Made by a program: the position numbers and the translations under genes. The notes beneath the pieces are model-generated. The model searched no databases, was not told where the DNA came from, and saw only the letters and a list, made by a program, of their open reading frames with translations. A DNA stretch of 64,000 nucleotides from Giardia intestinalis (Eukaryota): NCBI GenBank assembly GCA_000002435.2, contig CM018792.1; one strand, 5' to 3'. Of the stretch, positions 7,577 to 49,357 are shown one piece after another. Numbering within the stretch: the stretch's first letter is position 1; the number at the start of each line of letters is the position of its first letter.

Positions 7577-9313
7577 CTAGTCTATTTTATTGGCCAAAAG
7601 ATTCTTTGAAGATACATCCTCAAAATCAGCGCCCGATACAAATGGGCACATGGTAATGTCTCCTGCATGCACAACACATAGCACCAGGATCTGCGGCGGG
7701 ACATATGCCTGGATGTCCCGTAGGTAGGGAAGTAGTTCTGAACAGGGGATTGGTGCTGGTGTTGCGATACAAAACTTCCTATTCTGAGGCGGAAGCGTCG
7801 ATATCCATAGTAAAAGTTCTCCTAGCGTTGGGGGAGATTTTGCTCCTGAGAGAGTAAAATGCTGAATAGATTTAAAACTATAGAGCGAAAGAACGCCATA
7901 TGCATATTGCGAAATGGCTTCGCTCTTCATTACTTGATACTTGTATATTAACTGGGAGAGAGAAGCCGTCGATTCTTTGAGCGTAGCTATCTGTCTTTCA
8001 CGTAACATATTGAAATACTTTTGTACAGCCTTTCCGGCCGAAGAGGAGCTTAGAGAGCGGGAGAGTATTGAGGAAATATGAATATTTGATAGCTCAAGGC
8101 GCAGGAGGACAAGATGAAGAGCGGCCTCAGCGTCCTCTATGCTACTATGCCCTGCTTCTGCATTAGTCTGTATGTCCTTTAGCAGATAACGTCGTGCTAG
8201 ATCCTGAAGGCGAGGCTTCCGGGTCCCGTGCTGGTAAAGCACACAAGTATCAATTACAAGAGGGTAGATCAATCCCAATGCTCGTAGGTCATTCTCGACC
8301 CCGTGACCAACAATGAACGGAAGAGATACACCACTCAGTGCCGACAAGTCTGTCGAGTGTTGTATCTGCTCAGCATATAGAAGTTCGTGCAGCTCGGATG
8401 GCAGAATGAAGCTCAAAATATGATCTCTTATGATATCCTTTGGGTGCTTTGAACTTGCATTTTCTAATATCTGTGCCGTGATCCCAGAATATTGTGTCTT
8501 GTAATCTACTACTTCTGTATCGCTCGGTAGCTCAACATACGCATCATAGACTAGGGAGAATATGCTCGTTACTGGAGTAGTTGTCCTCGTATTGCATTCA
8601 ACAACAGTCACTCTGGCCAAGTCATTCTCACACACTGACGTATGAATCATCTCGCAGTCAATGGCCAAAAGTACTCCGTTCCAATTATCTGCTAAGTTAT
8701 TAATAATGCACTGGGGAGGCAAGTAGAGGAATGGAGTAAATTGCTCCGACTCCAAAAGTAAATCCTTGATGCTGGTTATCCTTTGCATTCTCAAGCACAT
8801 ATCCTCTTCCAGTATGGTTTCAAAATAGTGAGTATTGGATATTTGGGTTCCGCTTGACAGCGAAACCGAGAATGGGTATTGTGCGTTCAGTATGGGAAAC
8901 ACGTCTGGCTTAGTATCATCGGTAAGCTCCAACTTTAAGAGAAGGACTCCCTTGCAGGAAAACTCGTTGTATAGTTCGAATGCCGTCTTATTTCTAGCAA
9001 GATGCCTAAAGGACACGCACCGCAAGATGGTTTCGCGCACAGCTGCGGGGCTCTTACTCTCACCTCGACCAATAGAGAACTGCGACAGCGGTCTGAGGAC
9101 ATTAGTTTCTTTGTTGTCCTCCGTTCCCTGTCTAGTGGTGGGTCCGCTAAGGCCTTGGACACGTTTGAGAAGACCCTCAAGTCGTGCACGCTTAGACTGA
9201 GAAAGCCGCGCCAAACATGCCTGCAGCTCTGCTACCTGTGCATCGGTGAGTTTTTTCTTTTCTGCGACGCGTATCAACCGTTTTGCCTGCTTGCATGCTA
9301 ACTCTGGGTTCAT
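7577..9313 (-). CDS. Rex1/REXO1-type 3'-5' RNA exonuclease (DEDDh family)
   Basis: C-terminal exonuclease domain LLAIDCEM (Asp-Glu), later VGHGVENDLRAL (His-x4-Asp), typical of REX/RNH70 exonucleases. Start placed at ATG 9313 (MNPELACK...). This ATG lies 17 nt after an AGTAAA polyA motif that follows the upstream DHHC gene stop. Track start 9469 would overlap that gene by 136 nt. Confidence 0.65.
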   Translation of the reverse strand: MNPELACKQAKRLIRVAEKKKLTDAQVAELQACLARLSQSKRARLEGLLKRVQGLSGPTTRQGTEDNKETNVLRPLSQFSIGRGESKSPAAVRETILRCVSFRHLARNKTAFELYNEFSCKGVLLLKLELTDDTKPDVFPILNAQYPFSVSLSSGTQISNTHYFETILEEDMCLRMQRITSIKDLLLESEQFTPFLYLPPQCIINNLADNWNGVLLAIDCEMIHTSVCENDLARVTVVECNTRTTTPVTSIFSLVYDAYVELPSDTEVVDYKTQYSGITAQILENASSKHPKDIIRDHILSFILPSELHELLYAEQIQHSTDLSALSGVSLPFIVGHGVENDLRALGLIYPLVIDTCVLYQHGTRKPRLQDLARRYLLKDIQTNAEAGHSSIEDAEAALHLVLLRLELSNIHISSILSRSLSSSSAGKAVQKYFNMLRERQIATLKESTASLSQLIYKYQVMKSEAISQYAYGVLSLYSFKSIQHFTLSGAKSPPTLGELLLWISTLPPQNRKFCIATPAPIPCSELLPYLRDIQAYVPPQILVLCVVHAGDITMCPFVSGADFEDVSSKNLLANKID

Positions 9314-9326
9314 AATGTAGCAGCAA

Positions 9327-9332
9327 TTTACT
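9327..9332 (-). promoter_or_regulatory. AGTAAA polyadenylation-type motif 1 nt after the DHHC gene stop
   Basis: Minus strand reads TAA A AGTAAA TTGCTGCTACATT ATG. Giardia-type AGTRAAY signal. Confidence 0.4.
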
Positions 9333-9333
9333 T

Positions 9334-10305
9334 TTATAATTGGCTTGTTCCGCAGAGAACTATGGTCCATGCCCAGGCCTGTTGTTCTGCCTGGTCCGGT
9401 GAAAGATAGTAAAGGACGGGCATGTGGCTTCCAAATATAAGCCGACGGAGCCCCGTATGTTTCAGCCATTTCATCCTATCTTTAATAGAACTGTTTATGT
9501 CCTCTACAAGATTGCTGAGAAATTGATCTGCATCCGCAGACTTACTACCATTTATCCCCTTTCCAGACTGTTGATTACGAAGAGTATACAGTCTAGGAGA
9601 TTTGTCTCGGAAAACGTCGTAAAGAGTCCAGCCGCACATGCCTCCAGTGAACGCCCCTCCAAAGAAGGAGCCCAGAAGGCAAGCACCAGCGATAGCCAGC
9701 TCATTAATATTGTTGGCGTGAACCAGGGCGAGAATAGCCAGAGAAAAACACCATACAGAATGGATGCAGAGAACCAACAAAGACACAACGAAAGGCAGCA
9801 TGTTTCGGAGACCGATAGGCAGCCCGACCCACGGACAATAATGATCCAAGGCAACAATGCATTCATCTGTTTCTTCACAATGGTCAGTTTCTGGAGGGAG
9901 CGTTAGGTTGCAGACAGCGCATGTAGATGTCTCAAACACAATTCCAGCGGCTTGGAAAATCACTCCTGTCCGTGCACGCATGGGCGCTTCCGTGCCACTC
10001 TCTGCCTCATCTGACCGGCAGCCACGAGGAAGTCGGCCCGGATCGATAAAAATCAGGCGAAGCCATAGTAGAATCGACAGACCATATGTGAGACTGGTTA
10101 TAGTGTAGCTTATCCACGGGTGTATTGCTCGGGACGTTACTGGGAGGACGTATGCGAACTCTGCCATTGAAAACCCTGTAATTAGCAGTCCAGACAGAAG
10201 CGTACGTCGTAGAGCACGCGGTGATATTGTAACTGCGGGCGGGCCGGGTCGATTGTCACAAAAGGCCCCTCTCTCACGAAGCATTTTACTACCATTCTTT
10301 AACAT
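9334..10305 (-). CDS. DHHC-type zinc-finger palmitoyltransferase with non-canonical DHYC active site
   Basis: Cys-rich domain CAVCNLTLPPETDHCEETDECIVALDHYCPWVGLPIGLRNM fits C-x2-C-x9-HC-x2-C-x4-DHHC-x5-C, with variations DHC and DHYC. Flanked by 4 predicted TM helices. Confidence 0.65.
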   Translation of the reverse strand: MLKNGSKMLRERGAFCDNRPGPPAVTISPRALRRTLLSGLLITGFSMAEFAYVLPVTSRAIHPWISYTITSLTYGLSILLWLRLIFIDPGRLPRGCRSDEAESGTEAPMRARTGVIFQAAGIVFETSTCAVCNLTLPPETDHCEETDECIVALDHYCPWVGLPIGLRNMLPFVVSLLVLCIHSVWCFSLAILALVHANNINELAIAGACLLGSFFGGAFTGGMCGWTLYDVFRDKSPRLYTLRNQQSGKGINGSKSADADQFLSNLVEDINSSIKDRMKWLKHTGLRRLIFGSHMPVLYYLSPDQAEQQAWAWTIVLCGTSQL

Positions 10306-14083: not shown

Positions 14084-15304
14084 ATGGACTACCGTGAATG
14101 GGTCAACAAGGGGGTCCCGCCTTGTAAAAACTGTCCACTCGAGAGTGTACAGGAACTCCCCGCAGACTTTCCTTTTTTCTCTGTCTCGGCCTTCAACGAT
14201 GCAGTCATCCAGCTTCGGTCCAGATTAGCGGAGACGCGATATTTTTCTGCTCCTATGACCCATGCATCTGGGGCCGCCTTTCGCCAGCTAATTCAGGGCC
14301 ATATGGCCGAGGAGAATGAACGGACGAAGTATACCGGCTTCACACAGATGTATACGGCCGATGCGCTGCTTCATAATTCTCCTCTTCGAGATGCCGTGCT
14401 GTCTACTGCAGCTCCAGGGGAGAAGATTATCCTACAGCTCTGTGGAAACAACCCATCTACCTTTCGTGCCGCTGCAGAACTCCTTCACGACTCCCCCATT
14501 GCTTCTCAACTTGTTGCACTGGACATCAACCTAGGCTGTCCCGCCTCGTGTGCTTCAAGCAAGGGCTATGGCTTTTACGTAGCTCAGAATTGGCCTCTTG
14601 TGCATCAGATAATTTCAGAGACGTCGTCAGCACGCCTATTCCCAGTCACTTGCAAGATTCGGCCGCTGAACTCTATAGAAAAGACCATAGATTACATGGT
14701 GCTCCTAGTAATGTCTGGTGCTTCTGGCATCACAATCCATATGCGCCATACGACTCGGCAAGGTAAGCACGCCCAGGCTGTACGACCTGCCTACCAAGAG
14801 TTTGAAGAGCTTGTTCGCGCATTCAGACAACGATTAGACACACTCTTCACTGGCCTGGGTGGATCTGAAACTGCACAAGAGAACCCACATGTCTACCCCG
14901 TTATAATTCTGAATGGCGGCATCAAGAACAGACAAGAAGCAGACCATTTACTAGCCACTTATCCTGCAGACGGCGTCATGCTGGGTGTTGGTCTGCTTAA
15001 GAATCCCGCCTGTCTTTTGAAAAATGCCCCCCAAATACCTGGGAAAAACAGGATTGCATTTTGGGTCAATGAGGCCCTGAAATACCTAGATCTTTGCGAA
15101 AGCTTGTCCCAGGAGAGCATAGGTCAAGAAAACCCACTGAAGGTTACCCCCATGGCAAGCCACAAAGAAATAATTGGGCACACCATGCGGCTTATGCAGA
15201 ATGTGTCTGCAAAACGCTTCAATGAACCGATCAATAGAGCAAAAAGTATCGCAGAGTTGAGGGAGTTTCTCACCAAGGTGTTGTGCGCTCAAGCATCCGA
15301 TTGA
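14084..15304 (+). CDS. tRNA-dihydrouridine synthase (Dus family, FMN TIM-barrel)
   Basis: APMTHASGAAFRQL, ILQLCGNNPSTFRAAAEL, LDINLGCPASCASSKGYGFYV, PVTCKIR, IILNGGIKNRQEADHLLATYPADGVMLGVGLLKNPACL follow the Dus pattern (APM..vtd.pFR.L, vQl.G.dP, iDiN.GCP......G.G..L, PVtvKiR, NGdI....a......gaDGVM.GRG.l.nP). Confidence 0.7.
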   Translation: MDYREWVNKGVPPCKNCPLESVQELPADFPFFSVSAFNDAVIQLRSRLAETRYFSAPMTHASGAAFRQLIQGHMAEENERTKYTGFTQMYTADALLHNSPLRDAVLSTAAPGEKIILQLCGNNPSTFRAAAELLHDSPIASQLVALDINLGCPASCASSKGYGFYVAQNWPLVHQIISETSSARLFPVTCKIRPLNSIEKTIDYMVLLVMSGASGITIHMRHTTRQGKHAQAVRPAYQEFEELVRAFRQRLDTLFTGLGGSETAQENPHVYPVIILNGGIKNRQEADHLLATYPADGVMLGVGLLKNPACLLKNAPQIPGKNRIAFWVNEALKYLDLCESLSQESIGQENPLKVTPMASHKEIIGHTMRLMQNVSAKRFNEPINRAKSIAELREFLTKVLCAQASD

Positions 15305-16296
15305 TTGTATTGGGGTCTATTCCCAAGGGCATCCTTATTCTTGTTGAAACGACTTCCGCCTCGGTTGTTTCTCGTAACGGGTCTAGCAGGACGGATAGGT
15401 TTGTGGTCCTTTAAAAGAGAAATGGAGAATAGCTGCTTATACCGTGCTCGAAGCTGGCACATCAGGACTTCAATGTACTCCGCCAGCGAATCAGGCATGT
15501 CGCCACTGGCATTCTTTGAGGCGCTTTTGAGGGCAGATCTGTCGACTGTGTTGAGTATATATGCATACATTAGCGCGCATTTGTTCTTCATCACGTCTAT
15601 GGCTCGATTGGACCGTTTTGTGGGGTCTGCTGGCAATATGATTTTAATTCCGGGAATCTCTGCATAGATCAGCAAGAAGCGAAAAGTGGCTATGACAGCA
15701 TGTGCCACAGAACACCGTGAGTGGGCGTGGAACAATGTAAAGCATGAGAAGAGCTCTTTTGGTGGGATCCCACTTGTCTTTCTTCCGGGTTCCTCGCTAT
15801 CTTCTAGAAGCAGAAAAAGCGCCCAGAGGGAGGGACAATTATAATAAGCGCACTGTGTGTCCTCCTTCTTGTTTGCATGCATGATGACGGAAGTGGCTGT
15901 AAGAGGTGGAAGGATAGGCATAAGGGCGGCATAGATGCCTGCAAATTCTCCACCATTCCAGCTTTCAGTGACTAAATAATTATACTTGGCAAGCAGATCG
16001 GCTATTCTAATGATGTCCTTCTTTTCTAACTCTTGGTTCACAGAGTCTTTATCAAACGCCTCCACCAGCACCTTTAGTTTTGCCGCAAAGACGGGGGTCA
16101 GCTGGTGAGTAGCATATTGCGGGTGGAGGCTGTGAACCAGTGTGCCTACCGAATCGAGGCCTTGAAGCCCCAGAGCAATCAGGACTGCCGACAATTCCTC
16201 AAGAGCCGCCACTGGCGCAATGGACACGCTCGGGCGACCATCTTCTACTGTCTGTAACGCGGCGATATCACTTTGGACATCTAGGGGCTCTGGCAT
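15289..16296 (-). CDS. hypothetical protein, about 335 aa, helical, C-terminal Arg/Gly/Asn-rich tail
   Basis: Start placed at ATG 16296 (MPEPLDV...), immediately preceded by AAAAGTTTATTAATTACT. Track start 16326 is also ATG but would overlap the divergent gene. 3' end overlaps the Dus gene by 16 nt. Confidence 0.5.
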   Translation of the reverse strand: MPEPLDVQSDIAALQTVEDGRPSVSIAPVAALEELSAVLIALGLQGLDSVGTLVHSLHPQYATHQLTPVFAAKLKVLVEAFDKDSVNQELEKKDIIRIADLLAKYNYLVTESWNGGEFAGIYAALMPILPPLTATSVIMHANKKEDTQCAYYNCPSLWALFLLLEDSEEPGRKTSGIPPKELFSCFTLFHAHSRCSVAHAVIATFRFLLIYAEIPGIKIILPADPTKRSNRAIDVMKNKCALMYAYILNTVDRSALKSASKNASGDMPDSLAEYIEVLMCQLRARYKQLFSISLLKDHKPIRPARPVTRNNRGGSRFNKNKDALGNRPQYNQSDA

Positions 16297-16324
16297 AGTA
16301 ATTAATAAACTTTTACTTCTGCCC
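16297..16324. promoter_or_regulatory. 28-bp A/T-rich bidirectional promoter candidate, adjacent to a CCATGG site
   Basis: agtaattaataaacttttacttctgccc lies between minus ATG 16296 and plus ATG 16325. CCATGG at 16323-16328 contains an ATG on both strands. Confidence 0.4.
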
Positions 16325-17416
16325 ATGGCTCTTGATCCCTATGGCGATCGGTGGTACAGGGATTTCACCGTACGAATACTCCCAGTTGAGTGGAAGGTTG
16401 CAAAGCAATCCAAGCAGAAGGGATTCGTAGAGCCTTTGGGTGTCGCGGCCCTGTGCTTTACCGAGGTAGCGACTGGAGAGACATTCAAGCTCTTTGAGTT
16501 TACTCTGGTCAGTTACACCAAGAAAGAGATCAACGTCTCTGGAATATCAGACTCTGGCATTCAGATAACCGTATCCATTTTTGCACGATCCCAGAACTAT
16601 AGCCAGCTGCTGGTTCTCCTAGAATGTCTCCAGTCTCGCGACAGTGATGCTTACTCAGCAGAGAGGATTCCTCCCGCGACGCTAGCCACCGACTCAACCC
16701 CAAGCAAATTCTTGAGCCACTACTTGACTAAAGCTGCTGCCGCTCTCGATACCCGGCCCTCTTGTGGTATTCCTGAGATCGAGCGTGACCGCTTTCTTGC
16801 CGTCATGCGACTCATTATTCGCAGGTGCAGTGCAACCAGCAATAAGCCACCAGATACAGCTATTGAGGCCGACGCAGAAGCCGGGGATGTAATGCTACTG
16901 CCTTCTAGAATAGAAGCCCACAGGAGACTGTTGGTTGAGATGGGAATATGCAACGATCTTTCTAATTCAGAGATGTCCCACATGCAGAAGCTGCAGGTTG
17001 GACTGCCTGATGTGGACCGAGAAGAAATACTGCTAGAGCTTGGAAAGGCGTATAAGCCTGCATATTTGCTCCCGAAAACAACGAAAACCAGTCATAGAGA
17101 CGAGCGCTATACTCAGCAATTAGAAGAAGTTATCAGGAATGCAGAGTCTCTTTGTAATGAGATAGACAACCAAGATAATAGTAACGGGACGGCGTGTGAG
17201 GTAGTGCGTAGCAACGCACGCCCCTGCGGCATGATAAACCTTTCAGATATGAGCGCGGTACACAGCGCTCGAGACCGTGACCACGATCCGGTAGGAGACA
17301 GGGCTGCCCTAGGTAGCAACCATGTGCCAGGTTCTGCAAAATTCATTAGGCGGCCAGTTATATCCACATTCAATGCGACAGTTGAAGAGATACCAGACCT
17401 GACTACTCCTCTTTAA
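16325..17416 (+). CDS. hypothetical protein, about 363 aa
   Basis: ORF in track from 16220. ATG 16325 (MALDPYGDRWYRD...) chosen because it directly follows the A/T-rich element. No domain recognised. 3' end overlaps the next gene by 14 nt. Confidence 0.5.
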   Translation: MALDPYGDRWYRDFTVRILPVEWKVAKQSKQKGFVEPLGVAALCFTEVATGETFKLFEFTLVSYTKKEINVSGISDSGIQITVSIFARSQNYSQLLVLLECLQSRDSDAYSAERIPPATLATDSTPSKFLSHYLTKAAAALDTRPSCGIPEIERDRFLAVMRLIIRRCSATSNKPPDTAIEADAEAGDVMLLPSRIEAHRRLLVEMGICNDLSNSEMSHMQKLQVGLPDVDREEILLELGKAYKPAYLLPKTTKTSHRDERYTQQLEEVIRNAESLCNEIDNQDNSNGTACEVVRSNARPCGMINLSDMSAVHSARDRDHDPVGDRAALGSNHVPGSAKFIRRPVISTFNATVEEIPDLTTPL

Positions 17417-19607
17417 GCATCATAGGCTCCACACAGAGGATGCCCTTAGATATGTACCCTAGCATATCCTTGATAACGGGCCTCTTTAAGAAGTCTGCAA
17501 GGACAGAGCCCGTCACATTATCTTTAGCGACAATCCACACAACAAACTCCCCCAGCTTGTCATAGTAGAGGCGAGCTTCGTCCATGTGGCCTGAATTAGC
17601 ATATAGAGAACCCATTCTAAACATGAGCTCACAGTATTTAAGGCAGCATTGATTTGTCACAGTAGTTTCTATACTGCGTAAGGACATGAATCTATCTATT
17701 TTAATTCCATTAGTTTCTATTCCGTCTGTAAATTGTTCTTCAAGCTGGGCCATTCTCTTGGAATATCGACCGTTAGCATCATAGTTGTTCAGCTGTCCGT
17801 TGTTGATGAACTCTAGGGTGTCCAGGAGGTGCTGCTCTGTGTCTGCGCAAGCGTCTGTGCACACATCCTGAGCAGCGGGAAACTCGACAAGAGAAAGAGG
17901 TGCGTCTCGGGATATTTCAGTCCACCTGCTACAATAGACACCCTTTAGAGCACTGAGTAAGCACGTGCACTCCGAATGCAGCTGATATAAAACGGTTCCG
18001 TCGTCCTCAGAGAACTGCACGCTTTCAGTTGTGCCTTGACTGGATTGAAACAGGCCCTTCGCCTGGGCATAGATTGAGACGGCTTCTGCAGCCTTCAACG
18101 CCACAGTGTACTGCTCAAACATGAAGAATCGGCGAATCAGAAAGGCGTGCACAGAGTAGACAAGCAAGTGCCCGAGGGGCATGCGACCAGATATGGCTAT
18201 CTGGGAGCATCCTAACAACCGAAGGGGATGGATAGTGGTCTCATTAGCAAGCTGATTTAATCGCTTAATTGCAGTAAGTCGTAAATCCTTCACCAGTTGC
18301 GCGAGCTGAATGCTATTGATGACTTCATGGCTTGCAGTTGCCTCGAGAGCCATTACACAGAGATCAATTGCAGTAGAGTGGGAGTCATCCAGCAGGGCAA
18401 CGAAGCTCGCCAGGAGGTCCACAGACTCTGCAGGAGCTAAGTGAGCAGAGATAAGCAGGACGAGGGACGATGCACGAATGACGTCACTACTGATAGGCCC
18501 CGATGTGTTAACTATTCGTTCGTTATTACACAGCTTGAGAGCAAATTGACCGTACCATCCCACAACGGAGCGGAGCTTGGTGATGCACTCTGCTCCACTA
18601 GATGACCGGACGTACATGCCAGGCGTGCCTCGGTTGGCAATAGAGTTCAAGACGGCTATCAAGCTAGCAAGGACGTGCAAGGCAAGGAGACATAGGTTAC
18701 TCAGGGCAATAAAGTCTGCAGGAGAAGCTGCACCGTCACGGATAGAGACACAACGGTTCGAGAGATGTGCAGCCAGACCAAGGAAGTCGCAGGAGGCTAT
18801 TAGACGCTCTTCTTCGGGCAAGTGTCTGAGCAGTTCGGCCAGCTGAGAGTCTGCCTTCTGATTGAGCTGTGGATCTTCACCTCCCTCACAAGCAGCCAAA
18901 ATGAAATTCATGAGTGAGGCCCGGGACTCGGCCCACAGAGCGCTCTCAGGACTCTTGGTCTTACGCATACTTAAGTAATAGGACGGGTTCCCACTTAGTA
19001 GCCCAAAAATTGCACGCTCGTTCATGGGTGTCCGGCTGTCATTGGAGTAAGCCTGTGCCTTCTTCATCCACTCAACAAAGGATAGGTTACCGGCGATCCC
19101 AACATATTTCCGCGACGAGGCTCCGGCAGCGTCGCCTACAAAAACGTGGGATACTATGGCTCCTGCTAACATAGTGGCTTGAAGGCCGTACCCATGCTTC
19201 TCTAGCAAATCTACTGCCTCCTCAGCCTGACCTGCGCGGAGGTACTCAAGAACGTTGTCGTAGATCCCTGCGGTAGGTTCAATGGTAGGAACATATGTTT
19301 GTTCGAGCCACGTGACTATATTTTTGATCAAGCGGGCAGACTTGGAGCGAGTAAGAAAACTGCTTACAAGGGCATGCTGGTCCACTTTCGGAGCAGACCA
19401 ACCAGACCGAGCTCTTATGTCTCCTGTTATGATTTCGCTGGAAGTTGCTGAGGCAGATGACACCACATTCGGATGCTGGCTCGGATACAATAGCACATCC
19501 TCAAAGACAGCATCGACTAGCTGTGTCAGTTGAGGGTCACACTCACGGAGAGCGTCACCGGCATTGCAGTTCCGCCGCAATCGGTGGAGAAAAGCCCCAT
19601 TAAACAT
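17403..19607 (-). CDS. hypothetical protein, 734 aa, alpha-solenoid-like
   Basis: Long ORF with ATG at 19607. Helical repeat-like composition. No catalytic motif recognised. Confidence 0.55.
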   Translation of the reverse strand: MFNGAFLHRLRRNCNAGDALRECDPQLTQLVDAVFEDVLLYPSQHPNVVSSASATSSEIITGDIRARSGWSAPKVDQHALVSSFLTRSKSARLIKNIVTWLEQTYVPTIEPTAGIYDNVLEYLRAGQAEEAVDLLEKHGYGLQATMLAGAIVSHVFVGDAAGASSRKYVGIAGNLSFVEWMKKAQAYSNDSRTPMNERAIFGLLSGNPSYYLSMRKTKSPESALWAESRASLMNFILAACEGGEDPQLNQKADSQLAELLRHLPEEERLIASCDFLGLAAHLSNRCVSIRDGAASPADFIALSNLCLLALHVLASLIAVLNSIANRGTPGMYVRSSSGAECITKLRSVVGWYGQFALKLCNNERIVNTSGPISSDVIRASSLVLLISAHLAPAESVDLLASFVALLDDSHSTAIDLCVMALEATASHEVINSIQLAQLVKDLRLTAIKRLNQLANETTIHPLRLLGCSQIAISGRMPLGHLLVYSVHAFLIRRFFMFEQYTVALKAAEAVSIYAQAKGLFQSSQGTTESVQFSEDDGTVLYQLHSECTCLLSALKGVYCSRWTEISRDAPLSLVEFPAAQDVCTDACADTEQHLLDTLEFINNGQLNNYDANGRYSKRMAQLEEQFTDGIETNGIKIDRFMSLRSIETTVTNQCCLKYCELMFRMGSLYANSGHMDEARLYYDKLGEFVVWIVAKDNVTGSVLADFLKRPVIKDMLGYISKGILCVEPMMLKEE

Positions 19608-23907: not shown

Positions 23908-24162
23908 ATGCAGACAGACAACGTCCAGGTCCTCGGAGGCGAGCAGATGCAGGACATAGAGGCAGATGACATTCGAATGAAGGTAGCACCAGTGAACGAG
24001 GCACGCCAAGCGCAGCTACCCAACATCCAGATGGCATCTGAGCAGTTGCAGACGTCGATTGGCAAGGTATCAATAGCATATCTTTCTAAGTTTGTGGTCC
24101 CCTACGCAGACGCATATGAAAAGATGCAACCGTGGACGTCCAAAGACATCGCTCTTATGTGA
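23908..24162 (+). CDS. small hypothetical protein, 84 aa
   Basis: First ATG of the track ORF (which starts at a GTG at 23875). ATG preceded by A/T-rich aaaagatattttacgtgaaaattgcagacataagcaaagg. No domain recognised. Confidence 0.3.
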   Translation: MQTDNVQVLGGEQMQDIEADDIRMKVAPVNEARQAQLPNIQMASEQLQTSIGKVSIAYLSKFVVPYADAYEKMQPWTSKDIALM

Positions 24163-24226
24163 ATTTTTGTCTATAAGTTTGTTACCGGCGCAGGTAAGCA
24201 ACCAGCGAGAGCTGAGAATAATTAAA

Positions 24227-25336
24227 ATGGAGACGCTATCATTGGGAATGCACTGGTCACACACCAGCTATGCAGATGATTGCTTTCTGGGCACCATTGA
24301 TGAATCTCTGTTAAGTCCTAAACCTGCACTACATCAACCACTGTATGCGCTGCAGGGACAAGAGGATAGTGATCAGCTTCTGGGTGTCCGCAACTCAAGC
24401 GCTTCCCACAGAATAGCAGATGGGCCGATTGCACAAACTCACAAAAAAATGTCACAGCATCGGCTGCTGCTCTTCCTCCGCTTTCTGGATAGCTTTGTAA
24501 GCGACTTTGTTAGCCAGGCAAATAAGATCGCAGACTATCACAACAACTTGATCTTTCGCAGAATTCGAAAGGACCTCTTTCTATCCCTTAGAGAACACTT
24601 TAACTATCGAATGGCCCCCAACCCATATTCTAGTGACATTGTGTTCACCGCCTTTTTCCTTTTTAACGTGCTCGTGCAGTCAGTTCAAAAGCAAAATTGG
24701 AACCCCATTACGCTTCCAGACCACCTTACCGAGATTTTTAGCCAGCGAGACTCAATGAAAAGACTCATTGTGCTGTGTGTGAAACAGTATCATGAGGTCG
24801 GCCGAACACCCAAAAGTAAGCAGCTGGGTGTGCCCCCGAATCGCTATTACCGTTGTCTGCAACCCTTCTTTAAGAATGATACCTTTATCGTTTCACTTGT
24901 TCATACAATTCAAGATCGCATAACCATGGCCATTCAGACTGTTACACGATACATTGAGCAACGTAAGGCACAGTTCAGCGAGCAGAAACGTGCTACTAGT
25001 CGGCGTGTAGTCAGGAAGGTTTCCAAAGAAAATACTAGAACATCTAGAGACATGTCCAACACAGCAAAGGCTGGAGAGACTGATGCGCCCCCTAGTGTGT
25101 CCAAAAATGTGCGTAGTACTGATGTTCATTCCACAAGTGTTGGCGAGTTTACTCCCTCGGGAACCCAGGAGCTTTCAGAAACCTCCACAAGAATCGAAGA
25201 AGGTTCGTATCCGTTCAACGCATCTCAGGACCAAGTGGATCAGTGGCTAACTGACTATCTTCAGCACACAAATAGCGGGTTCTACGTTGGAGAAGACTTC
25301 AATCTGGATGACCCCTGCTTCCTGCCTATCAATTAA
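24227..25336 (+). CDS. hypothetical protein, 369 aa
   Basis: Track ORF starts at TTG 24092 and overlaps the preceding small ORF. ATG 24227 (METLSLGMHW...) directly follows GAGAATAATTAAA. No domain recognised. Confidence 0.5.
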   Translation: METLSLGMHWSHTSYADDCFLGTIDESLLSPKPALHQPLYALQGQEDSDQLLGVRNSSASHRIADGPIAQTHKKMSQHRLLLFLRFLDSFVSDFVSQANKIADYHNNLIFRRIRKDLFLSLREHFNYRMAPNPYSSDIVFTAFFLFNVLVQSVQKQNWNPITLPDHLTEIFSQRDSMKRLIVLCVKQYHEVGRTPKSKQLGVPPNRYYRCLQPFFKNDTFIVSLVHTIQDRITMAIQTVTRYIEQRKAQFSEQKRATSRRVVRKVSKENTRTSRDMSNTAKAGETDAPPSVSKNVRSTDVHSTSVGEFTPSGTQELSETSTRIEEGSYPFNASQDQVDQWLTDYLQHTNSGFYVGEDFNLDDPCFLPIN

Positions 25337-27512: not shown

Positions 27513-30500
27513 CTAATCACCAAGATTAAGGAGTATTGCTGTTCCACGCTTGACCCATTTTGCAGGCTTATCATAGCCACTGTGGAGCCAGATATTGATA
27601 ACGAACGATGGCTGCTCACGTGATCCTGTGCGAACAGGATAGTAGTAGCACGGGCATTCATAGAATACCTGCTGGAACTTCGCCGTTTTCTTCTTCGCCT
27701 CTTGGGGCTTGAACCGGATTATTGGGAGCGTTAGATAGAGATCCATCAGGCGAGGCTCTTTTAAGTAGCCTACGTCTAAGTCCCAGTTTGCGCCCTCAAG
27801 ATAGAAGTCATGGGCATAGAACCCATCTCCAAAAGCAGGCACGCTTCTATCGTCGATGTCGCGAAGAGGGTCAAGGTACCTCGTGACTTGGAAGCCCCAT
27901 TCGAGTTGATCGATAGCTATGTTCATTCTACGTGATGCCTGCTGCTGCAACGCGGTTAGGAAGGCGGTGGGCAAACTCAGTCCACCAAGCCAGTAACTCT
28001 TTAGTGAGCCGACGTTCGCCCACTTCTGTAGTTGCTCCACCCGCTTGATGAAATCGCGTGACCATGGCGCTAGAGACTTCGTGCTCTTGTAAATGATCCC
28101 CCAGGATGCAGGAACCTTACCGACTTGCAAGTCGTTGAGCACCTCATCAAGATACGCCGACATCATCGTCAGCCCCCTGATACCTCTTTGGAGAGTCGTG
28201 AGGTCGTCACTGATAATGTTCCTGAGCCGCATGTGGCGTTCAGATTCCTGTAGCAGGACTGCCTTCAGCGGTGCAGTTTGATCATTGATGTCTGTTATTG
28301 GGGGAGGGAGGTTGGTTATTGGGGCCGGCAGACTGTGAATGATGTCCTGGGCTAGCTTGATCATACGCTCGTCTCTCGCTGACAAACCAGTGCTTTCTTT
28401 CTTCTTTTTCTTGGTTCCATCCTCGTCGCCGTCGCCGTCGTCTGCTACCTTTTTGGCCTTCTTCTCTTTCTCCTTCTTCTTATCATCCACTTCGCCAGAA
28501 GAGCTGCCGTCGATGGACTGAATCGTTAGCAAAGTCTCGACAAGGGTTAGAGACTCCACCTTCCGAGAAGCGACCTCTGAGTTACTATGTTGCCCGAAAA
28601 CAGCGGGAAGATCAACCTGGGGTAACGTGGTGATATAGTCTCGATACTCCTGCAGGCTTCCTCGTTGCGGAATGACATACTCTGAAAGCGGGGGCGCGAG
28701 CAGATATCCGTCTCGCTTGATTGCAGTCTGGCAAAACACATGGTCTATGTAGACGTTGAGAACGCGCCTATCGAGATCGTCTATGACTCGCCCTCCATAG
28801 ATAATGGAAGCGACAAGGTACTTCAAGGCGTTCCACGGAATAGTATCATACAGCTGGAGATACATGGACAAAACCTCGACAGCAGTCTCGTAATCGGATT
28901 GCGTGAACTGGTATTGGATGTTATATCCTAAACTGCCAAACTTACGACGTTCGACGAGGAGCGTGTGGTAGAACGAGATGCCGAAAAGCAGCTTCCTATA
29001 GGCGTCATCCTTCTCGTCGGGTGTCATGGAAAACATGTTTTCTTGCTCCTCTTGAGGCACATGGTACGAGTCACGGACTTGTAGTCGTTCGAGAATCGGC
29101 TTATCAATGTACGTATATAGTTGTTGAAGATTGGCACGGACACCAGAGGGCGCCTCTGTCGTGATCTTTATGCTAGTCTGAAGGACACTTATAGGGAATA
29201 CGTTGGTGGGGTCTGATGAAATCCAAAGCCTGAAGTCTTTGTGCGGCGCTGAATGGGGTATATCTTCCACTAGCTGCTCCAGGACGGAGAAGAAACTCGG
29301 AGTTAGGTGCACATTGGCAAGTAACACCCAACGGCCCTCTTTCATGGACCGCTGGACGGCCTTCACTGCAACCTCTTGCTGGCCTTGGCCCAAAGAGATC
29401 TGATCAAGTTTATCTGCGCGGCCGCATGACTTGGCAAACGCCAAGAGCTGAGAGGTGGGATCAGCGCCTTGGGAAAGGATAAATAACAGAGGAATCTGGG
29501 GGGAAGAATCTGTCAATGCCAATCCCAAGTCAAATGGCGGTGGATTAGTGTATTGAGCCCCGATACTGTTTGCAACAAAAGTATAGATCGCGTTGATAAG
29601 GCGATCAGGTCTGAAGCAGCGCAGCACAAGCATCTTCTGGAGCTCGTTTAGCTGAGTGTCCCATTCGCCAACAAGAGGCGCCTTTTCAGGCGTATCGTGG
29701 ACGTAGTAGTTAGTGTACCAGTCTTTCAGGCGCTGCTCAATGCTGGGAAGAAGGTTGCTGAAGGCAGGCATCTTATCAAGAATACAAAGGCTGTCCCACA
29801 TTGCGCCGCTAATCCAAGTGGGATCGGGGTTCGGCGGCTGCTGAGACTTGTCGAACACCTGGCCGCCCTTGAGCAGAAAGGCATACTCACTCATATTTAT
29901 CCTGCCATAACTTTCCAGGATCTTCACGCACATATGCAGAGACAAGAGAATCTTGTGCCGAGTAAACAGACCACGGCAGCAGTACTTATAAACCGCGTAA
30001 GTGTGGTAGTCGTTGAGGAGTCTAATTCGGGCGCTAACGTCCTCATGCTTCTGGCTGTTATTGATGCTGTTAATAAAGAGCTTCATGTATGCCTCCAAGC
30101 TAAATTGGTACATAGGATCTACTGAGCCCAGATCTTCGAGAACAAAGTACAGCAGCGATGCCCTCTCGCTGACAGGCTGATAAGCCCGCCGTGCCATATC
30201 AATCTTTTTCTCAGTGATCGCAGAGGTTTCAAGCTGCTTTGTAATCTCTGCAGACGTGACTTTGGAATTTTCAAGAGTGGCAATAAGCTCCTCGTCGTCG
30301 AGAAGACTGCCAGACGATGTAGCCAGGAGACGCAATATCTCATCTTCCAGAAACTGCAACTTCACCCGCATATTGGCTGTGTTGAGAACGATCTTATTTT
30401 TAGATTCCTCTAAATCTGGGCGTTCCTTTGAAACGACTGCTCCCAGCAGCTGGTCTGTTAGACCCTCCTTGATAATCGTGAAGTTGATGATACAGGCCTT

Positions 30501-33500
30501 TGCAAAGACCTCTGGTGTGTACAGAGGATTGGGGAGGCGTGTCGAAACAAATATCCGGAAGTTATCATTCCACTCTACCTCTTTATCGCGGATCTTTATG
30601 AACCGCCTACCTTGTTTCTTGATAATGTCCTTCCGTATAATGACGTCCAAGGACGGATCAATTTGCTCCCCGACGTCTTCAAGCAACACGGGTGTCCCGT
30701 ACTGTATGCACATTTCAATTTGTTTCACTGCGTCTGCATCCTTTGCATTTATGATCTTGAGGTTCTCATCTGGGTTGCTGGACTGCTTCGGTGGCTTCTT
30801 TGATTGCTGAGTACCTACCTCAAGCTTGAGCGTTCCGCCCTCACTTTCTTCGCTCTGCTGTACATTCCCTACGTCTGTCTTGCTGTACTCAGGAGCCTCA
30901 AAGAAGAGCCTCTTAATCCATCTGGTTGCTTGGCGCTGAGGATCTATGATAAGTGGCGTTCTGTTGCTCGTCGTAATAAGTATCCCGTTCTCTGCGCTGA
31001 AGTTATCCTTTGGAAGGCCAAGCAAGCTCCATTGATAGATGAGGGCCTGCCCGGCTAAGAACTCCGAGACGCTGTACTTTTCAGGGTCTGTGCACGGAAT
31101 CATCCACACATTGACAGCGTTGACCCACTCGGTCAGAACATATGAGCGGAACCGCCCAGTGAGTCCGCCAGCGTAAGATATGAAGGCAGCCGCTGTCAAG
31201 CAGTCTCCGGGCAGCGATGACAGATTGTAGGTTAGTGTCTGGATCTTCTTCGTCCACCGCTCCTTTTCGCCTCCAAGACCACTTATAAGCTTTTCGGCGC
31301 GGTTGAGCTTTAGGGCAAGTTCCTCGGCAAGCCTTCGAAGCCGGTCGCGTTCAGCAACCGCAGAGGCATGCTCACTCTTGAGTTTTTCGACGGCGGCAGC
31401 AATGCGAGCAAGCTCATCTTGCGCTGCCTGAAGTGCACGCTCCTTTTCGGCCAACTTATTCTTGGCGTCCTCCAAGGCGTCTTGTTTTGGTTTAACAACT
31501 TTGTAGACGCATGCGTACTCATAAACAGCACGAACCCATAGACAAAGGGACTTCCCAGCCACAGAAACACGCCCGATTGCGTCGACAGTGTAGTTCTTGT
31601 CCATGTAGTACCGCTTAACCTTCTTGAGCATCGTCTCAGGGATATTGTTAACATCATAGTTAATCAGCTTCTCCAAAAACTGACCTTCTCCCATAACTAT
31701 TTTAGCAGACTTATAGTCTGTATCGCGATTAAGAAGCGTCATAACACCGGCCAGAACCAGTTTAACAAGCTCTGGAGGCTGTGTAAACGAGCGAATTTCG
31801 TAGATATCCTTAGAGTCAAGACTCTCCAAGGCCTTCTGAGCAGCCTCCAGGGCAGGAGTCGCCTCGTCTAGGTCCTTCTGGGCCTCTTTCATCTGTCCCA
31901 TAAGGACCTCCTTTTCTTTCATAAGCTTCTCCGAGTCGATCTGGATTAGCCTCTGTTTCTCATCTATCTCACGCTGCTGAACAGCTATATTCGCAAGCAG
32001 ATTCTCACAGTTCTCCTGAGACTCCAGAACAACCACTTTCGTCGTTTCCAACTCCTTCCGCATCTCCTCGACAGTCTCGCGCGTCTCCATGAGCTTATTG
32101 ATACCGCCCTTAAGTTTGTTTATATCATTGGTAATCTTGTGGCGCTGCTGAAGAAGGATATCTCTATATAATCGGACAAGGGACAGGTATCCTGCTGGAG
32201 TAACGTGGACCTTGCGTTTAGAAGCCAGCTCCATTTCCAGGGCTGTCTTGTGGGATACGTCGTGTGCCGTAACAAAGGCTTTCGCCAGCTTCCTGCGGAG
32301 CGACATGCGTGTCGGGTCTGTAGTGTCTGACTCGTCTCTGCTGCTGTTTTGAGAACTTCCTCCTCGCGCAGTAGTTGCAGGTGGCTGAGCCTTTTCTTCA
32401 ACGATATTTCCATTCTCATCGATCTCCAATACGCGCTGCATGTTCTCAAATTCATCCAATTCCTTGAAATCTGAGAGGAAGTAGAGCGCGACTTCCTCTA
32501 ACGCCGAAGTGGGCCAGTCTCCGAAAAGATCGAGGGTACACGAGCCAACCAATGACGGAAACATGCGCAGACGGCGCCGAAACACCTCTCCTGATGGTGA
32601 GAAAGCTAAAACTATGTGAAGGTTGACCTTCGATCTCTGCAGGAGCATCTGATAACAATTCTCCATTGTCTCGCTCATGCCATACTGCTTGCATACAGGA
32701 GACAAAGCGTCGCGTATCTGGCTCATTTCGTCTTGCGTAAACAGACCAGGTATCTCTCCAGAAGACAATATTGAATTGACATCCTCTAGAAACGCCTCGT
32801 CGGCGATTTGCTGGTCGGAAAGGAGGAAGCACACTGCTTGGTTATCAACGCCGGCCATGAGAAAGAGCTTCTTCATATCTTCGCGGAATTGGGCAACCCC
32901 GTAGTTCTTTGCTAGGTCTATAGAAAAGACAGTTTGCCGCTGGAGATGCGCTGCAAGCCGTGTCATACTACTGCGTCCTGATCCACCTGATCCAATCAGC
33001 AGTGCGTGACCAGACGGAGAGGAGAGAATTCTGGCAATCCGACAGCAATGATCAATCGCGTCATTGAAGAGAACAAGATTCATGGATGCTGCACCGGAGT
33101 TGTTGTATTCTCTGAGCTTTTCCTCCATGAAGGTCTTGAGCATCTTCTTGCTGGTTATCTCCTGGAAGACGCCTACTTCTGTGTCAGGATCCTGATTGTT
33201 AGGAATTGTCGAGATCCACTTTGTCTCCAAGAAGTCTACAAATAGCGGAGGCTGCTTTTCATAGAACACACGGCTGAGGGTTGTATTGAAATGGTTTCCG
33301 AGCTTTGAGCTGAGCAGGTCAAAGAACCAGGGGCGGTCCGTTTCAACCAGCCGGTCGTGATAAACGCGGAGGCACTCGTGTGTCCAAAGCCGAACAATGG
33401 AGTCCTGCGTTGTTTGCTGCTGCGGGTCGGCCTTCATAAGGCTCAAGAAGAACTTGGACAAGTCACGTAAATTGAACACGTAATGCGGCTTCAGTGGTGT

Positions 33501-36500
33501 CGGCAGAAGAGAAGAAGAGACCTGAGCGTAGATCTCTATGCCAGACGTCACTAGGGTATCAACCATCTGCCTTATTTGCTCGTCAAAGCCAAGTGCAAAA
33601 TGGGCGTTCAGGAGGGTGTGGAAGATGCCCTTCAGGACATTTTCACTGGGTGAATCTATTCCAAAGATGCTAAACAAGGAGAGGTTACGCGCACAGATGG
33701 GGTTCCGCCCGCCACCGGGGACAGCCATAGCAGGTACAATATCCACGTCTAGAATAGAGGACAAATAGTACTTATCCTTCTTCTGTCTGTACATTGTCCC
33801 GCGATCCATAACCTGACGCATAAACTCCAGAGGCGGCTGGGAACCGAATGCATCGCGCTGTGGAAGGTTATAGTCATCGAAGAAGGCCAAAAGCCGCTTA
33901 CCACCGACCGGTCCCATGGAGGTCGTCGAGCGCGGCTGCAATCGAGATTCCAAGACAGCCTGAAGGCGCTGCGGAGATGTTTGCGCAGAAAGACCTAGCG
34001 ACACTATGTTGTACTTTCCAATATTTCCACCAACAAACATCTTCTCCAGATTTGTGGCCCCATCGCAGGCTACTTGGAGAGTGGAATAGTACTCATAGGC
34101 AGAGTTTGTGATCAGGCCCTGCTCGAGTGCGGGAATGATGATGTTTTTAAAGATAGACGTCTTCCCAGTTCCGCTGACTCCATAGAGCATTACCCCGTAC
34201 GAAGTGGTGTAGCTATTGGCAGGCCCGACTGTGTGGTAGTTCCTGATCTCGATAGACTCTATCGCTGCGTGAAGGATTGCTGTTTTAACCACGTATTCGG
34301 TGCGGAGAGTATCCACCGTGGGAACAAGAGTTGAGTACAGGGGAATGGCTGGATTGGGTCGCCACCCTCTCGGCAAGACCTCGTTCCAGTGTACCCAGCT
34401 GCGACGGCCGTGGTCCACCTTATAATCCCAAACGGTGTCTGCCACTGGAAGAGCACCCTCAACTTCACGGATAATCAAGTCGAAGTGTTGTCTGCCGTCC
34501 GAATCCAGACTGCCACCGAACGCCCAGACCAGTGAGAAGACGATATACATTTCAACAACGCGTTGTACCATCCCATCATTATCAAAAATGTCAATCCACA
34601 CACCATTATGGGGCTGCGCAAGGGCCTCAAACATGTTGAAGAATGTCCGCATCATGGAGTATACAGAATAGTCGATGGACTGGGTCAGGATGCCTTGCTC
34701 TTTTGCATCGAACACCTTATTAAATAGCTTCATTCCATAACCCTCCAGAGTATCTATTATCAACTGGTTAGTCTCCGCTGGTACATCATGCTTTATGAGC
34801 TCCTTATAGTTGGAACTATCGCCCTCGTTTTCCTTGACCTTGGCTATTGCTCGCTCCAAATTAAACTGAAACGTCCCATAGCGCTCTCTAACCAGCTCAT
34901 TCCTTGTCCTCGAGCGATAAAACTTGTCTATTCCGTGCCTATAGAGCCATCTCCACTCTATGTCCGAGAGATCACAGTAAATCATTCCTGCACGGGAGAC
35001 AGTAGCAGGAGAGGCTTGTGAGAGATCATTTGCCTCAAACAAGAAGTTGACGGCCTTAGGGAACGAGATACGCTCACCGTTGACAAGTGTTAGTATCTTT
35101 GAATCGTCAAGCACTGAGTTGAGGGACTCTATCCACAGTGTGTCCACAGGGCCATCGAAAAGCGTAGTGTAGTAGGTCTTATTGTTGGGATCATTACCCA
35201 GTGCTGAGCTGCTGCGGATACAATTGGAGACAACGCCATCAACCCATTCTTGGGTCGCCATGTCAAACGCCCCATACAGCTGGTTGATGTTGAGGGCTTT
35301 GGGATTTATGTAGTCTATCACAACGTCGTAGGCGTCATCGTATGGGGTGCGGACCTTCTCATCATAGACTGGCTCCACCAACACGTCACCGACGGTGGTG
35401 TCCTTCTGATCTCGTGCGGGAGTAAAGGCATACGCACCTGTGTTAGAGTCATATTTGTAGACATCCTTCATGTAATGGATACATTTAGCTAGGTAAACTG
35501 TTTCTTGTATATGCTTAGACGTTCCTGTTTCGTCTTTGTACAACTTTTGCAGAAGGTAAAGGTATGGGGAGACAGCCTTGAATGGAATTTCCTGTGAGTC
35601 GACGACGTGTTTGATCATTATGCAATAGGGGTTCTTAAGAAAGGCCTTGGCCTGTACAGCCCCCTTGGGCTGAGTTGCTTCAAGATACTCTGTATATGCT
35701 TTCTTAGCGCGAGCGCGAGCAGCCGCAAGCACCTCGTAACAGGTTGTTTTGCCGGAGCCAGAATTCCCAATGACCATAACTCCGTGCCGGGACTCTTGTG
35801 TTTCTAGAAACTGGAAGATCTTGTCGCGCTGCTTAGTGTTGATATGAATGTTCCGTACTGCCATCTCGATATCCACGCCTGCTTCCACAAGCCCGTACGA
35901 AACGTCCTGCAGCTCTACACCCGGAAAGAGATCGCTAATTAGGCCTGTGAATAGAAGTGTGTCCTGGCGAACAAGTTTCGGCTCCGTGCTGTACTTGAGG
36001 CTCCTCATCATGATCATATCCTCCGGATACTCTGGATGGCTGCGCTTCAACATGCCTGCGGTCAGAAGAACCGCCTTCATTGCGCGCAGACCGAAGTCAT
36101 AGTGGCCTTGCTTGGAAAGCTGAAGGTTAGAAAGTTCAAATAGAGTCTTTGCCTTCATTCCTAAGGACTTGGCTGTGGCGAAGCCCTCGGAAAGGATCAT
36201 GATTTCACAAATGAGTTGCATCTGTGGCACACACATTGAAATGGGGCGGAAAAGGGCCTTGAGGTTGTCAGGCAGCTCCGAGCGGCCGGCATAGCCTGGA
36301 TTCATGGTTATGAAAACGCCGCACGTGCGCTTTAAACTGATTTCACGTCCCTCAAAAACAAATCTAGACGCATTTTTAGAGATAGCTGCAAGGATGGTTC
36401 CGACTTGCTGTGCAACAACTGAGAGAACATCGACGTAGAGACGATTGAACTCGTCAAAGCAGCTCCAGGCGCCTGTCTGGCAAAGACCCGAAAACATCCG

Positions 36501-48701: not shown

Positions 48702-49349
48702 TCATAGAACAGCACATAGTCTGCAGTTTGTCTTCTTGGCTTCTTTGAGAAACATTTTGGACGCTGCAGACAGGTCATCGGACTTCTTCATGACCTCATC
48801 AAGACTCCTCCCACGCTCAACAATCTTCTCTAGATTTGCATACGCCATGTCTCGCACTTCATCGATATCTTTGGCCAGCTTAGAAAGCTGATCGTTCTCT
48901 TCTGGCCTCTGAGCTCTCTTTAAAAGAGGAACTAAGTCTACAAGACCACCATCCTCTTTTGGCCCTACAGCATCTTTGGAGACATTGAGCTTGTTGGGCG
49001 GTAAATTCATCGCTAGAGAAAGCATCTCCTTAAGGTAATGGTTTGCGAAGCGGATGGCATACGAAGTATTGGCTACTAGGATTGCAGTTGTACCGCTTGA
49101 ATTCTTAAGTCCATAGACGCAGTACGCAAAGTCATTGTTTGCTGACGCCTTTATCATGTTCCCAGGCTGCAGAGCAAGGGCGACGGACCGAGCTGAGAAA
49201 CGCATGATCTCTTTGGCAGATCCCCGGGTCACCAAAGAGAGAGACGAGACGTCGTGTGCGGCTGCAACTATGGCAACGGTTTTCTCCTCCCCATTGACAG
49301 GAGGCAGGTCCTGGATCAGGGCCACGTACATGACCGGAGAAGAGGTCAT
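48702..49349 (-). CDS. YKT6: Ykt6-like longin R-SNARE (no TM, C-terminal CaaX-like CAVL)
   Basis: Longin domain VMYVALIQD...KTVAIVAAAHDVSSLSLVTRGSAKEIMRFSAR matches Ykt6 (lyalsilyk..kvvllkaayDVSSFSFFqRssvqEFMtFtsq). R-SNARE motif DEVRDMAYANLEKIVERGRSLDEVMKKSDDLSAASKMFLKEAKK. Ends NCRLCAVL. Start set at second ATG 49349. Track start 49367 would overlap the Rpt4 ATG. Confidence 0.7.
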   Translation of the reverse strand: MTSSPVMYVALIQDLPPVNGEEKTVAIVAAAHDVSSLSLVTRGSAKEIMRFSARSVALALQPGNMIKASANNDFAYCVYGLKNSSGTTAILVANTSYAIRFANHYLKEMLSLAMNLPPNKLNVSKDAVGPKEDGGLVDLVPLLKRAQRPEENDQLSKLAKDIDEVRDMAYANLEKIVERGRSLDEVMKKSDDLSAASKMFLKEAKKTNCRLCAVL

Positions 49350-49357
49350 TTTTAAAA
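49350..49357. promoter_or_regulatory. 8-bp palindromic spacer TTTTAAAA between the divergent Ykt6 and Rpt4 start codons (minimal bidirectional initiator candidate)
   Basis: ggtCAT TTTTAAAA ATGccc. Minus ATG at 49347-49349. Plus ATG at 49358-49360. Confidence 0.35.

Follow-up and report, generated by a model that had tools for sequence, protein, structure and literature searches.

A 28-bp A/T-rich spacer as a candidate two-way promoter between divergent Giardia genes annotated as overlapping in 2007

Do two divergent genes of Giardia intestinalis overlap head to head, or do they stand on either side of a very small promoter that serves both? The question is raised by a 64,000-nt stretch of the genome of G. 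intestinalis WB (ATCC 50803), referred to here as the window, in which a mechanical list of open reading frames places 15289..16326 on the minus strand and 16220..17416 on the plus strand, with an overlap of 107 nt. A first-pass annotation had put the overlap at about this length and drawn attention to three features: a CCATGG palindrome (16323-16328) that carries an ATG on each strand (the complement of 16324-16326 on the minus strand, 16325-16327 on the plus); an alternative minus-strand ATG (the complement of 16294-16296); and a 28-bp A/T-rich element, AGTAATTAATAAACTTTTACTTCTGCCC (16297-16324), adjoining both this alternative ATG and the ATG at 16325. Its simplest model was a shared bidirectional promoter with starts at 16296 (minus) and 16325 (plus); its alternative was that the ATGs physically overlap. 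Re-reading of positions 15900-16800 found all of these coordinates to be right.

The proteins of the locus were matched by exact-sequence look-up, which identifies the minus-strand gene as GL50803_8704 and the plus-strand gene as GL50803_14762, both annotated as ‘hypothetical protein’. The current products are of 335 aa (15289..16296, minus strand; KAE8303526.1 / XP_001708368.2), starting at the complement of 16294-16296, and of 363 aa (16325..17416, plus strand; KAE8303527.1 / XP_001708367.2), starting at 16325; 28 bp lie between the two starts. The longer forms, 345 aa (XP_001708368.1, minus) and 398 aa (XP_001708367.1, plus), are the models of 2007, in which the same two ATGs are M11 and M36, respectively. 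Since current RefSeq/GenBank records hold the short forms and those of 2007 the long ones, the reference annotation already embodies the simplest model outlined above: the 107-nt overlap is an artefact of longest-ORF calling that has been corrected. Both extensions were dropped in the curated re-annotation of Xu et al. 2020, in which 626 WB start codons were moved, guided by orthologue alignments and an A-rich start motif (PMC7000408). A literature search by locus tag found no paper naming either gene. The neighborhood is compact: from 14084 to 19607 there are four tightly packed genes, and the 28-bp spacer is the sole non-coding DNA.

Homology searches returned orthologues only from within G. 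duodenalis, namely from P15 and from Logan assemblies. The comparison set comprised five Giardia lineages – WB, P15 (assemblage E), L002/L003, L004 and L005 – with loci L001-L005 including four Logan contigs. L004 (run SRR21529631, sequenced in work on human isolates of assemblages A and B) is probably assemblage B, to judge from its minus-gene call of 343 aa, the same length as GS GL50581_3656 (1032 nt). Gene order is kept in all loci (PGM, Dus, 8704, 14762 and a Nup84/Nup100-like gene), and in P15 and the four Logan contigs the divergent pair flanks one short spacer, as it does in WB. Of particular interest is the point at which protein conservation begins: in the orthologue alignments it opens exactly at M36 of the plus ORF (MALDPYGDRWYRDFT...) and exactly at M11 of the minus ORF (MPEPLDVQ.D...). 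In every BLASTP match the aligned part amounts to 91% of the 398-aa query or 97% of the 345-aa one, only the extensions falling outside it. The starts at 16296 (minus) and 16325 (plus) are those of both the current annotation and the onset of conservation.

Because the orthologue proteins were the output of gene callers, the locus DNA was compared directly, by walking in frame upstream of the conserved ATGs in each lineage. The plus extension (35 codons, 16220..16324) shows no conservation as coding sequence: in P15 the frame is closed by a stop 16 codons upstream of the conserved ATG, and the sole upstream ATG, nine codons upstream, differs from that of WB; in L002/L003, L004 and L005 there is no in-frame upstream ATG before a stop. 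The minus extension (10 codons, 16297..16326) fares similarly. Only WB, DH and P15 retain it; L002/L003 lack an upstream ATG, and in L004 and L005 the ATGs are placed elsewhere and encode unrelated residues. Conservation of the N-terminal extensions was the check that the first-pass annotation had set for its model, and in distant lineages neither extension is kept as an ATG-initiated ORF.

These observations bear directly on true head-to-head coding overlap, in which translation would begin at 16220 (plus) and/or 16326 (minus), adding 35 and 10 aa, with the ATGs overlapping in CCATGG. Neither long ORF is interrupted in WB or the DH isolate, both were annotated in this form in 2007, and P15 retains CCATGG together with an open 10-codon minus extension; against this stand the stop in P15 and the missing or misplaced ATGs of the other lineages. 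Composition points the same way, with the 30 nt upstream of 16220 (40% A+T) and of 16326 being coding-like (40–43% A+T) and devoid of any initiator-like match. Giardia leaders, moreover, are typically 1-14 nt in length and its ribosomes do not scan (PMC3610916), and curators have removed both extensions. We regard coding overlap as scarcely credible.

The palindrome itself has a simpler explanation. It is present in WB and P15; in the DNA alignment its place is taken by TTATGG in L002/L003/L004 and by ATATGG in L005, so that it is unconserved beyond assemblages A and E. Given that any CATG puts an ATG on both strands and that, apart from WB, only P15, its closest relative in the set, has the site, we consider CCATGG a coincidence and reject it as a meaningful dual-start signal. 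With neither the extensions nor the palindrome conserved, the alternative of physically overlapping ATGs is disfavoured.

What, then, of the spacer? Its A+T content is 20/28 (71%), compared with about 51% across the window. For the 30 nt upstream of each conserved start, 16325 (plus) and 16296 (minus), the figure is 73%, and no more than 0.9% of the 2148 window ATGs match or exceed it. The A/T-richness of the spacer is thus above chance. The combination of A/T-richness with a match to the Giardia initiator consensus (described below) was also applied to other genes as a check of the method: in five other ORFs of the window (surE, an exonuclease, a DHHC palmitoyltransferase, GL50803_0013776 and R-SNARE 2) it chose an internal ATG, and in 5/5 this was the current RefSeq start.

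The length of the spacer varies among lineages, from 28 bp in WB and P15 and 30 bp in L004 to 49-50 bp in L002/L003/L005, where the plus ATG is set off from the A/T block by an insertion of ∼21 nt. The spacer contains a conserved core, AATAAACTT (AATAAAYTT, 16304..16312), of which AATAAA (16304-16309) and TT (16311-16312) are invariant in five lineages. Four-fold synonymous sites of the two genes provide a neutral yardstick: in the same five lineages 20/139 (14.4%) are invariant, and pairwise identity at such sites is 44-64%. On this basis the probability of six invariant columns in a row is 0.144^6 = 9e-6 at a given position and about 2e-4 for the 28 bp as a whole, figures to be read with the caveat that alignment optimisation of A/T-rich sequence can affect them. 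Judged by this alignment, the AATAAA[C/T]TT core is under constraint, evidently of purifying selection. Its distance to the minus ATG is fixed in all lineages; that to the plus ATG is variable, ranging from 18 to 43 nt.

Other identities for the element were considered. As a dispersed repeat the 13-mer AATAAACTTTTAC has one exact copy in the window, at this locus; allowing up to two mismatches there are four copies where 1.2 are expected, none of them at gene starts. With copy number near chance, a dispersed-repeat identity was rejected. A scan for bacterial sigma-70 promoters and terminators, irrelevant in a eukaryote, returned nothing.

Giardia promoters are short and AT-rich, with an initiator at the transcription start site (TSS), and fire bidirectionally (PMC1885649); they are mostly TATA-less, the A/T-rich initiator containing the start site. 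To score the spacer we derived an approximate position weight matrix (PWM) from Table 3 of Tolba et al. 2013 (PMC3792122), using just the 17 commonest TSS-consensus variants. The best plus-strand match is TAATTAATAAA (16299..16309, central A at 16304), with a PWM score of 7.7, at the 99.95th percentile of window positions; its equivalent recurs in every orthologue. It predicts a start for the plus gene near 16304 and a 5′UTR of about 21 nt. On the minus strand the matches are weaker: TAATTACTATG (16304-16294) and AGTTTATTAAT (16311-16301), together spanning 16294..16311, score 2.2 and 2.4 (near the 99.55th percentile), and 13% of the ATGs in the window have an upstream match at least as good. 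They would place starts of the minus gene near 16299 and 16306, giving a 5′UTR of 3-10 nt. The consensus match is thus strong on the plus strand and weak on the minus strand. In L005 the equivalent of the minus-strand match, AATTTATTAAT, scores 7.1, and a further strong initiator-like sequence, TATTTAAATATG (PWM 9.0), abuts the plus ATG.

No second TATA-like A/T-rich element was seen ∼30 bp upstream of either predicted start. At that distance the flanks are the CDS of the partner gene, and G+C is about 0.5–0.6 outside 16280-16339. The missing element is not strictly disqualifying, since it is variable and most Giardia promoters are described in the literature as TATA-less. The immediate context of the plus ATG is C/G-rich (CTGCCC).

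Together these analyses support the view of the first-pass annotation that the 28-bp element is a promoter between divergent genes; that it is shared and bidirectional is suggested by its sequence, its conservation and the Giardia literature. As a whole we think it very probable that GL50803_8704 and GL50803_14762 are head-to-head genes with starts at 16296 and 16325, that their overlap is a longest-ORF artefact, and that the spacer, a putative core promoter and initiator region for both genes, is an A/T-rich promoter of the initiator type firing both ways. The conserved A/T-rich block (16299-16316, with its core AATAAAYTT) would be the initiator of a minimal Pol II promoter of the mostly TATA-less kind. 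Transcription would begin within 16299-16316 on both strands and run outward, and the 5′UTRs would be very short: some 3-18 nt in the minus transcript and some 16-21 nt in the plus transcript. Should transcripts start there, each mRNA would have a conserved ATG, 16296 (minus) or 16325 (plus), as its first AUG. For Giardia, the 16-21 nt predicted for the plus gene would make a comparatively long 5′UTR. These start sites are predictions, and the two directions may use one pre-initiation site or two overlapping ones.

The real promoters could instead lie within the coding sequence of the partner gene and produce longer 5′UTRs, the A/T block being kept for another reason, such as an A-rich translation-start context or a leader element. 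Enrichment in A to about 13 nt before start codons is general in Giardia (PMC7641422, PMC7000408), a few of its genes have 5′UTRs of 150-400 nt (PMC3792122), and the core keeps a constant distance from the minus ATG but a variable one from the plus ATG, all of which would be in keeping with such a role. However, the first AUG in WB would then be the unconserved 16220 or 16326, a poor fit with ribosomes that do not scan (PMC3610916), and the flanking coding DNA is without A/T-rich or initiator-like signal. Nor is there any sign of promoter elements in the four-fold sites of the partners’ first codons: 2/8 and 0/2 sites of the first 30 codons are invariant as against 11/71 and 7/58 in later codons, so that, on what are admittedly tiny counts, these codons are no more conserved than the remainder. 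On these small numbers we rejected promoter elements in the first codons, and we consider promoters within the partner genes improbable.

A different matter is whether the spacer holds one initiator or two. The same start codons could be served by two independent unidirectional initiators, packed together or partly overlapping in the A/T block, each with its own initiation complex. Tolba et al. argue that much ‘bidirectional’ Giardia transcription comes from closely spaced unidirectional initiators, and among the cases revealed by TSS-seq are some in which two sites are nearby or overlap (PMC3792122). The best PWM matches here differ by strand (16299-16309 on the plus; 16311-16301 and 16304-16294 on the minus), and the longer spacers of L002/L003/L005, together with the separate TATTTAAATATG at the plus ATG of L005, indicate that the two functions are physically separable. 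On the other hand, WB, P15 and L004 have a single A/T-rich block in 28-30 bp, within which the matches on the two strands mostly overlap, and single A/T-rich elements are able to drive both directions, as found by 5′RACE and dual-reporter assays (Teodorovic, Walls & Elmendorf 2007, PMC1885649). Two packed initiators are in our view a serious contender, at somewhat below an even chance.

The strictest form of sharing would be that the invariant 9-bp AATAAAYTT core is a single, truly shared initiator, from which mRNAs of opposite strands start within a few nt of each other, their 5′ ends overlapping or abutting. TSS-seq has identified cases of adjacent genes separated by a symmetrical consensus in which a single nucleotide is the start for both directions (PMC3792122). 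For this locus we put the idea forward tentatively, and think it rather unlikely; if true, the core would be among the smallest complete bidirectional Pol II promoters serving two protein-coding genes.

A Pfam scan at E<=1 placed neither of the two uncharacterised proteins in a family. A HMMER profile of the plus protein, run against 1.84 billion representatives, found only its own cluster and no homologue outside G. duodenalis; for the minus protein, word-indexed searches gave no homologue outside that species either, and an alignment-query search recovered the same five clusters of G. duodenalis. The alignment-query search found no G. muris orthologue of the minus protein, for which reason the spacer comparison has no deeper outgroup. 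AlphaFold2 models built on five-sequence alignments had mean pLDDT values of 35.9 and 37.6, too poor for fold searches. In an expression table covering four isolates, GL50803_8704 is expressed at FPKM 53.75 in WB, 157.67 in AS175, 31.69 in P15 and 48.14 in GS; its WB coordinates there cover 1008 nt, which is 335 codons plus a stop. The portion of the table that was covered has no entry for GL50803_14762.

The locus leaves current understanding of Giardia promoters unchanged. AT-rich initiators, bidirectional promoters and re-annotated starts have all been described in this organism, the architecture is ordinary, and the specific case had already been corrected in the reference annotation. It nonetheless carries a caution: longest-ORF calls in Giardia routinely over-extend N-termini and so create false head-to-head overlaps, as they probably do in other compact protist genomes, the real Giardia start being the ATG that follows an A/T-rich initiator. 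It also shows how little DNA a Giardia promoter needs, and offers a convenient, natural and minimal substrate for the question of one initiator serving two genes.

As an instance of 2007 over-extension in WB, the locus follows the pattern reported by Xu et al. 2020 (PMC7000408): both starts have shifted downstream (345 to 335 aa and 398 to 363 aa), and both new starts come after an A-rich motif and agree with the orthologues. Nothing substantive sets it apart from other cases, except that here two over-extensions face each other, giving the appearance of a head-to-head overlap.

With the AT-rich initiator (Inr) core promoters of alpha2-tubulin, GDH and cytoskeleton genes the spacer shares a short A/T-rich stretch directly before the ATG, a very short implied leader and a whole promoter of <=50 bp. 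In contrast to those promoters, 28 bp must suffice here for two genes, a separate TATA-like element ∼30 bp upstream is lacking, a pyrimidine-rich CTTTTACTTCTGCCC separates the plus ATG from the A/T block, and the start sites are predicted ones. Measured against the 11-nt TSS consensus (Tolba et al. 2013, PMC3792122), TAATTAATAAA resembles AAATTAAAAAT and AAAATAAAAAT. The closest parallels in arrangement are the bidirectional promoters of Giardia (PMC1885649) and the ran/phd pair, whose genes are transcribed outward from a 153-bp intergenic region: in each case head-to-head coding genes surround one short A/T-rich region expected to fire both ways. The median intergenic distance in WB is 81 bp (PMC7641422). 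At this locus, where bidirectional firing is a prediction from the sequence, the two genes are separated by about one-fifth of the ran/phd distance.

The 28-bp A/T-rich spacer (16297-16324) that separates the start codons of the head-to-head genes GL50803_8704 (15289-16296, minus strand) and GL50803_14762 (16325-17416, plus strand) lies in very compact surroundings. At its 3′-end GL50803_8704 shares a 16-nt tail-to-tail coding overlap (15289-15304) with the Dus gene (14084-15304, plus strand), while the 3′-end of GL50803_14762 overlaps that of a Nup84/Nup100-like gene (17403-19607, minus strand) by 14 nt (17403-17416). As a consequence of these two overlaps the spacer is the sole non-coding DNA across 14084-19607. 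The mapped 3′UTR of GL50803_8704 is 350 nt in length and thus extends into Dus. In the five syntenic orthologue loci (L001-L005: P15 and four Logan contigs) the overlap of GL50803_14762 with the Nup84/Nup100-like gene is 14 nt in every instance; that between Dus and GL50803_8704 is 16 nt in L001, L002, L003 and L005, and 25 nt in L004, whose assembly splits the Dus gene. The 734-aa product of the Nup84/Nup100-like gene (4094-6298 in L001) carries a precomputed, predicted Pfam match to the nuclear-pore scaffold family PF04121 (Nup84_Nup100).

The spacer itself varies among lineages. In L002 and L003 (2952-3000) and in L005 (2951-3000), ∼21 nt have been inserted on the plus-gene side of the conserved A/T core, before the ATG of that gene: the distance from core to plus-strand ATG grows from ∼20 nt to ∼40 nt, and the distance from core to minus-strand ATG remains constant. 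L005 has gained, at the plus-strand ATG, a strong and separate initiator-like sequence (TATTTAAATATG) that is absent from L002 and L003. On the plus strand, 13 of the 15 positions in the right-hand half (CTTTTACTTCTGCCC, 16310-16324) are pyrimidines, and our own tally over the orthologous spacers puts the corresponding segments at 65-78% pyrimidine. This composition may be relevant to a preference reported for Giardia TBP in 2025, which favours flexible, CT-rich single-stranded DNA above A/T-rich initiators (PMC12209930).

The two genes look like orphans restricted to G. duodenalis. Neither protein has a match in Pfam. No homologue in G. muris or elsewhere was found for the plus-strand protein (HMMER, 1.84 billion representatives) or, by word-indexed search, for the minus-strand protein. 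The latter is strongly conserved inside the species complex, with a mean column identity of 79%. AlphaFold2 confidence is very low for both.

Over-extension of longest ORFs affects at least seven of the ∼31 gene-like ORFs in the window. Beyond the pair itself, five genes have a protein in current RefSeq that is shorter than the longest ORF: surE (191-1420; 391 aa annotated, longest ORF 409 aa), an exonuclease (7577-9469; 578 versus 630 aa), a DHHC palmitoyltransferase (9334-10305; 316 versus 323 aa), GL50803_13776 (24116-25336; 369 versus 406 aa) and R-SNARE 2 (48702-49367; 215 versus 221 aa). In all five an A/T-rich, initiator-like motif precedes the annotated start ATG. An initiator-like AAAGTAAAAAA also stands five nt upstream of the first ATG of a single, uninterrupted 5577-aa ORF (27513-44246, minus strand).

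R-SNARE 2 belongs to a second head-to-head pair, with 26S protease regulatory subunit 7. The longest ORFs (48702-49367, minus strand; 49358-50563, plus strand) overlap by 10 nt. The current RefSeq starts, 49349 for R-SNARE 2 (215 aa) and 49358 for the protease subunit (401 aa), leave merely 8 bp (TTTTAAAA) between the two start codons. Here lies a perfect 14-bp palindrome (CATTTTTAAAAATG, 49347-49360), and in the WB window a rough initiator matrix built from the 17 most frequent TSS-consensus variants of PMC3792122 scores 12.4 on plus and minus strand alike. Compared with GL50803_8704 and GL50803_14762, this second pair presents the same phenomenon in more extreme form.
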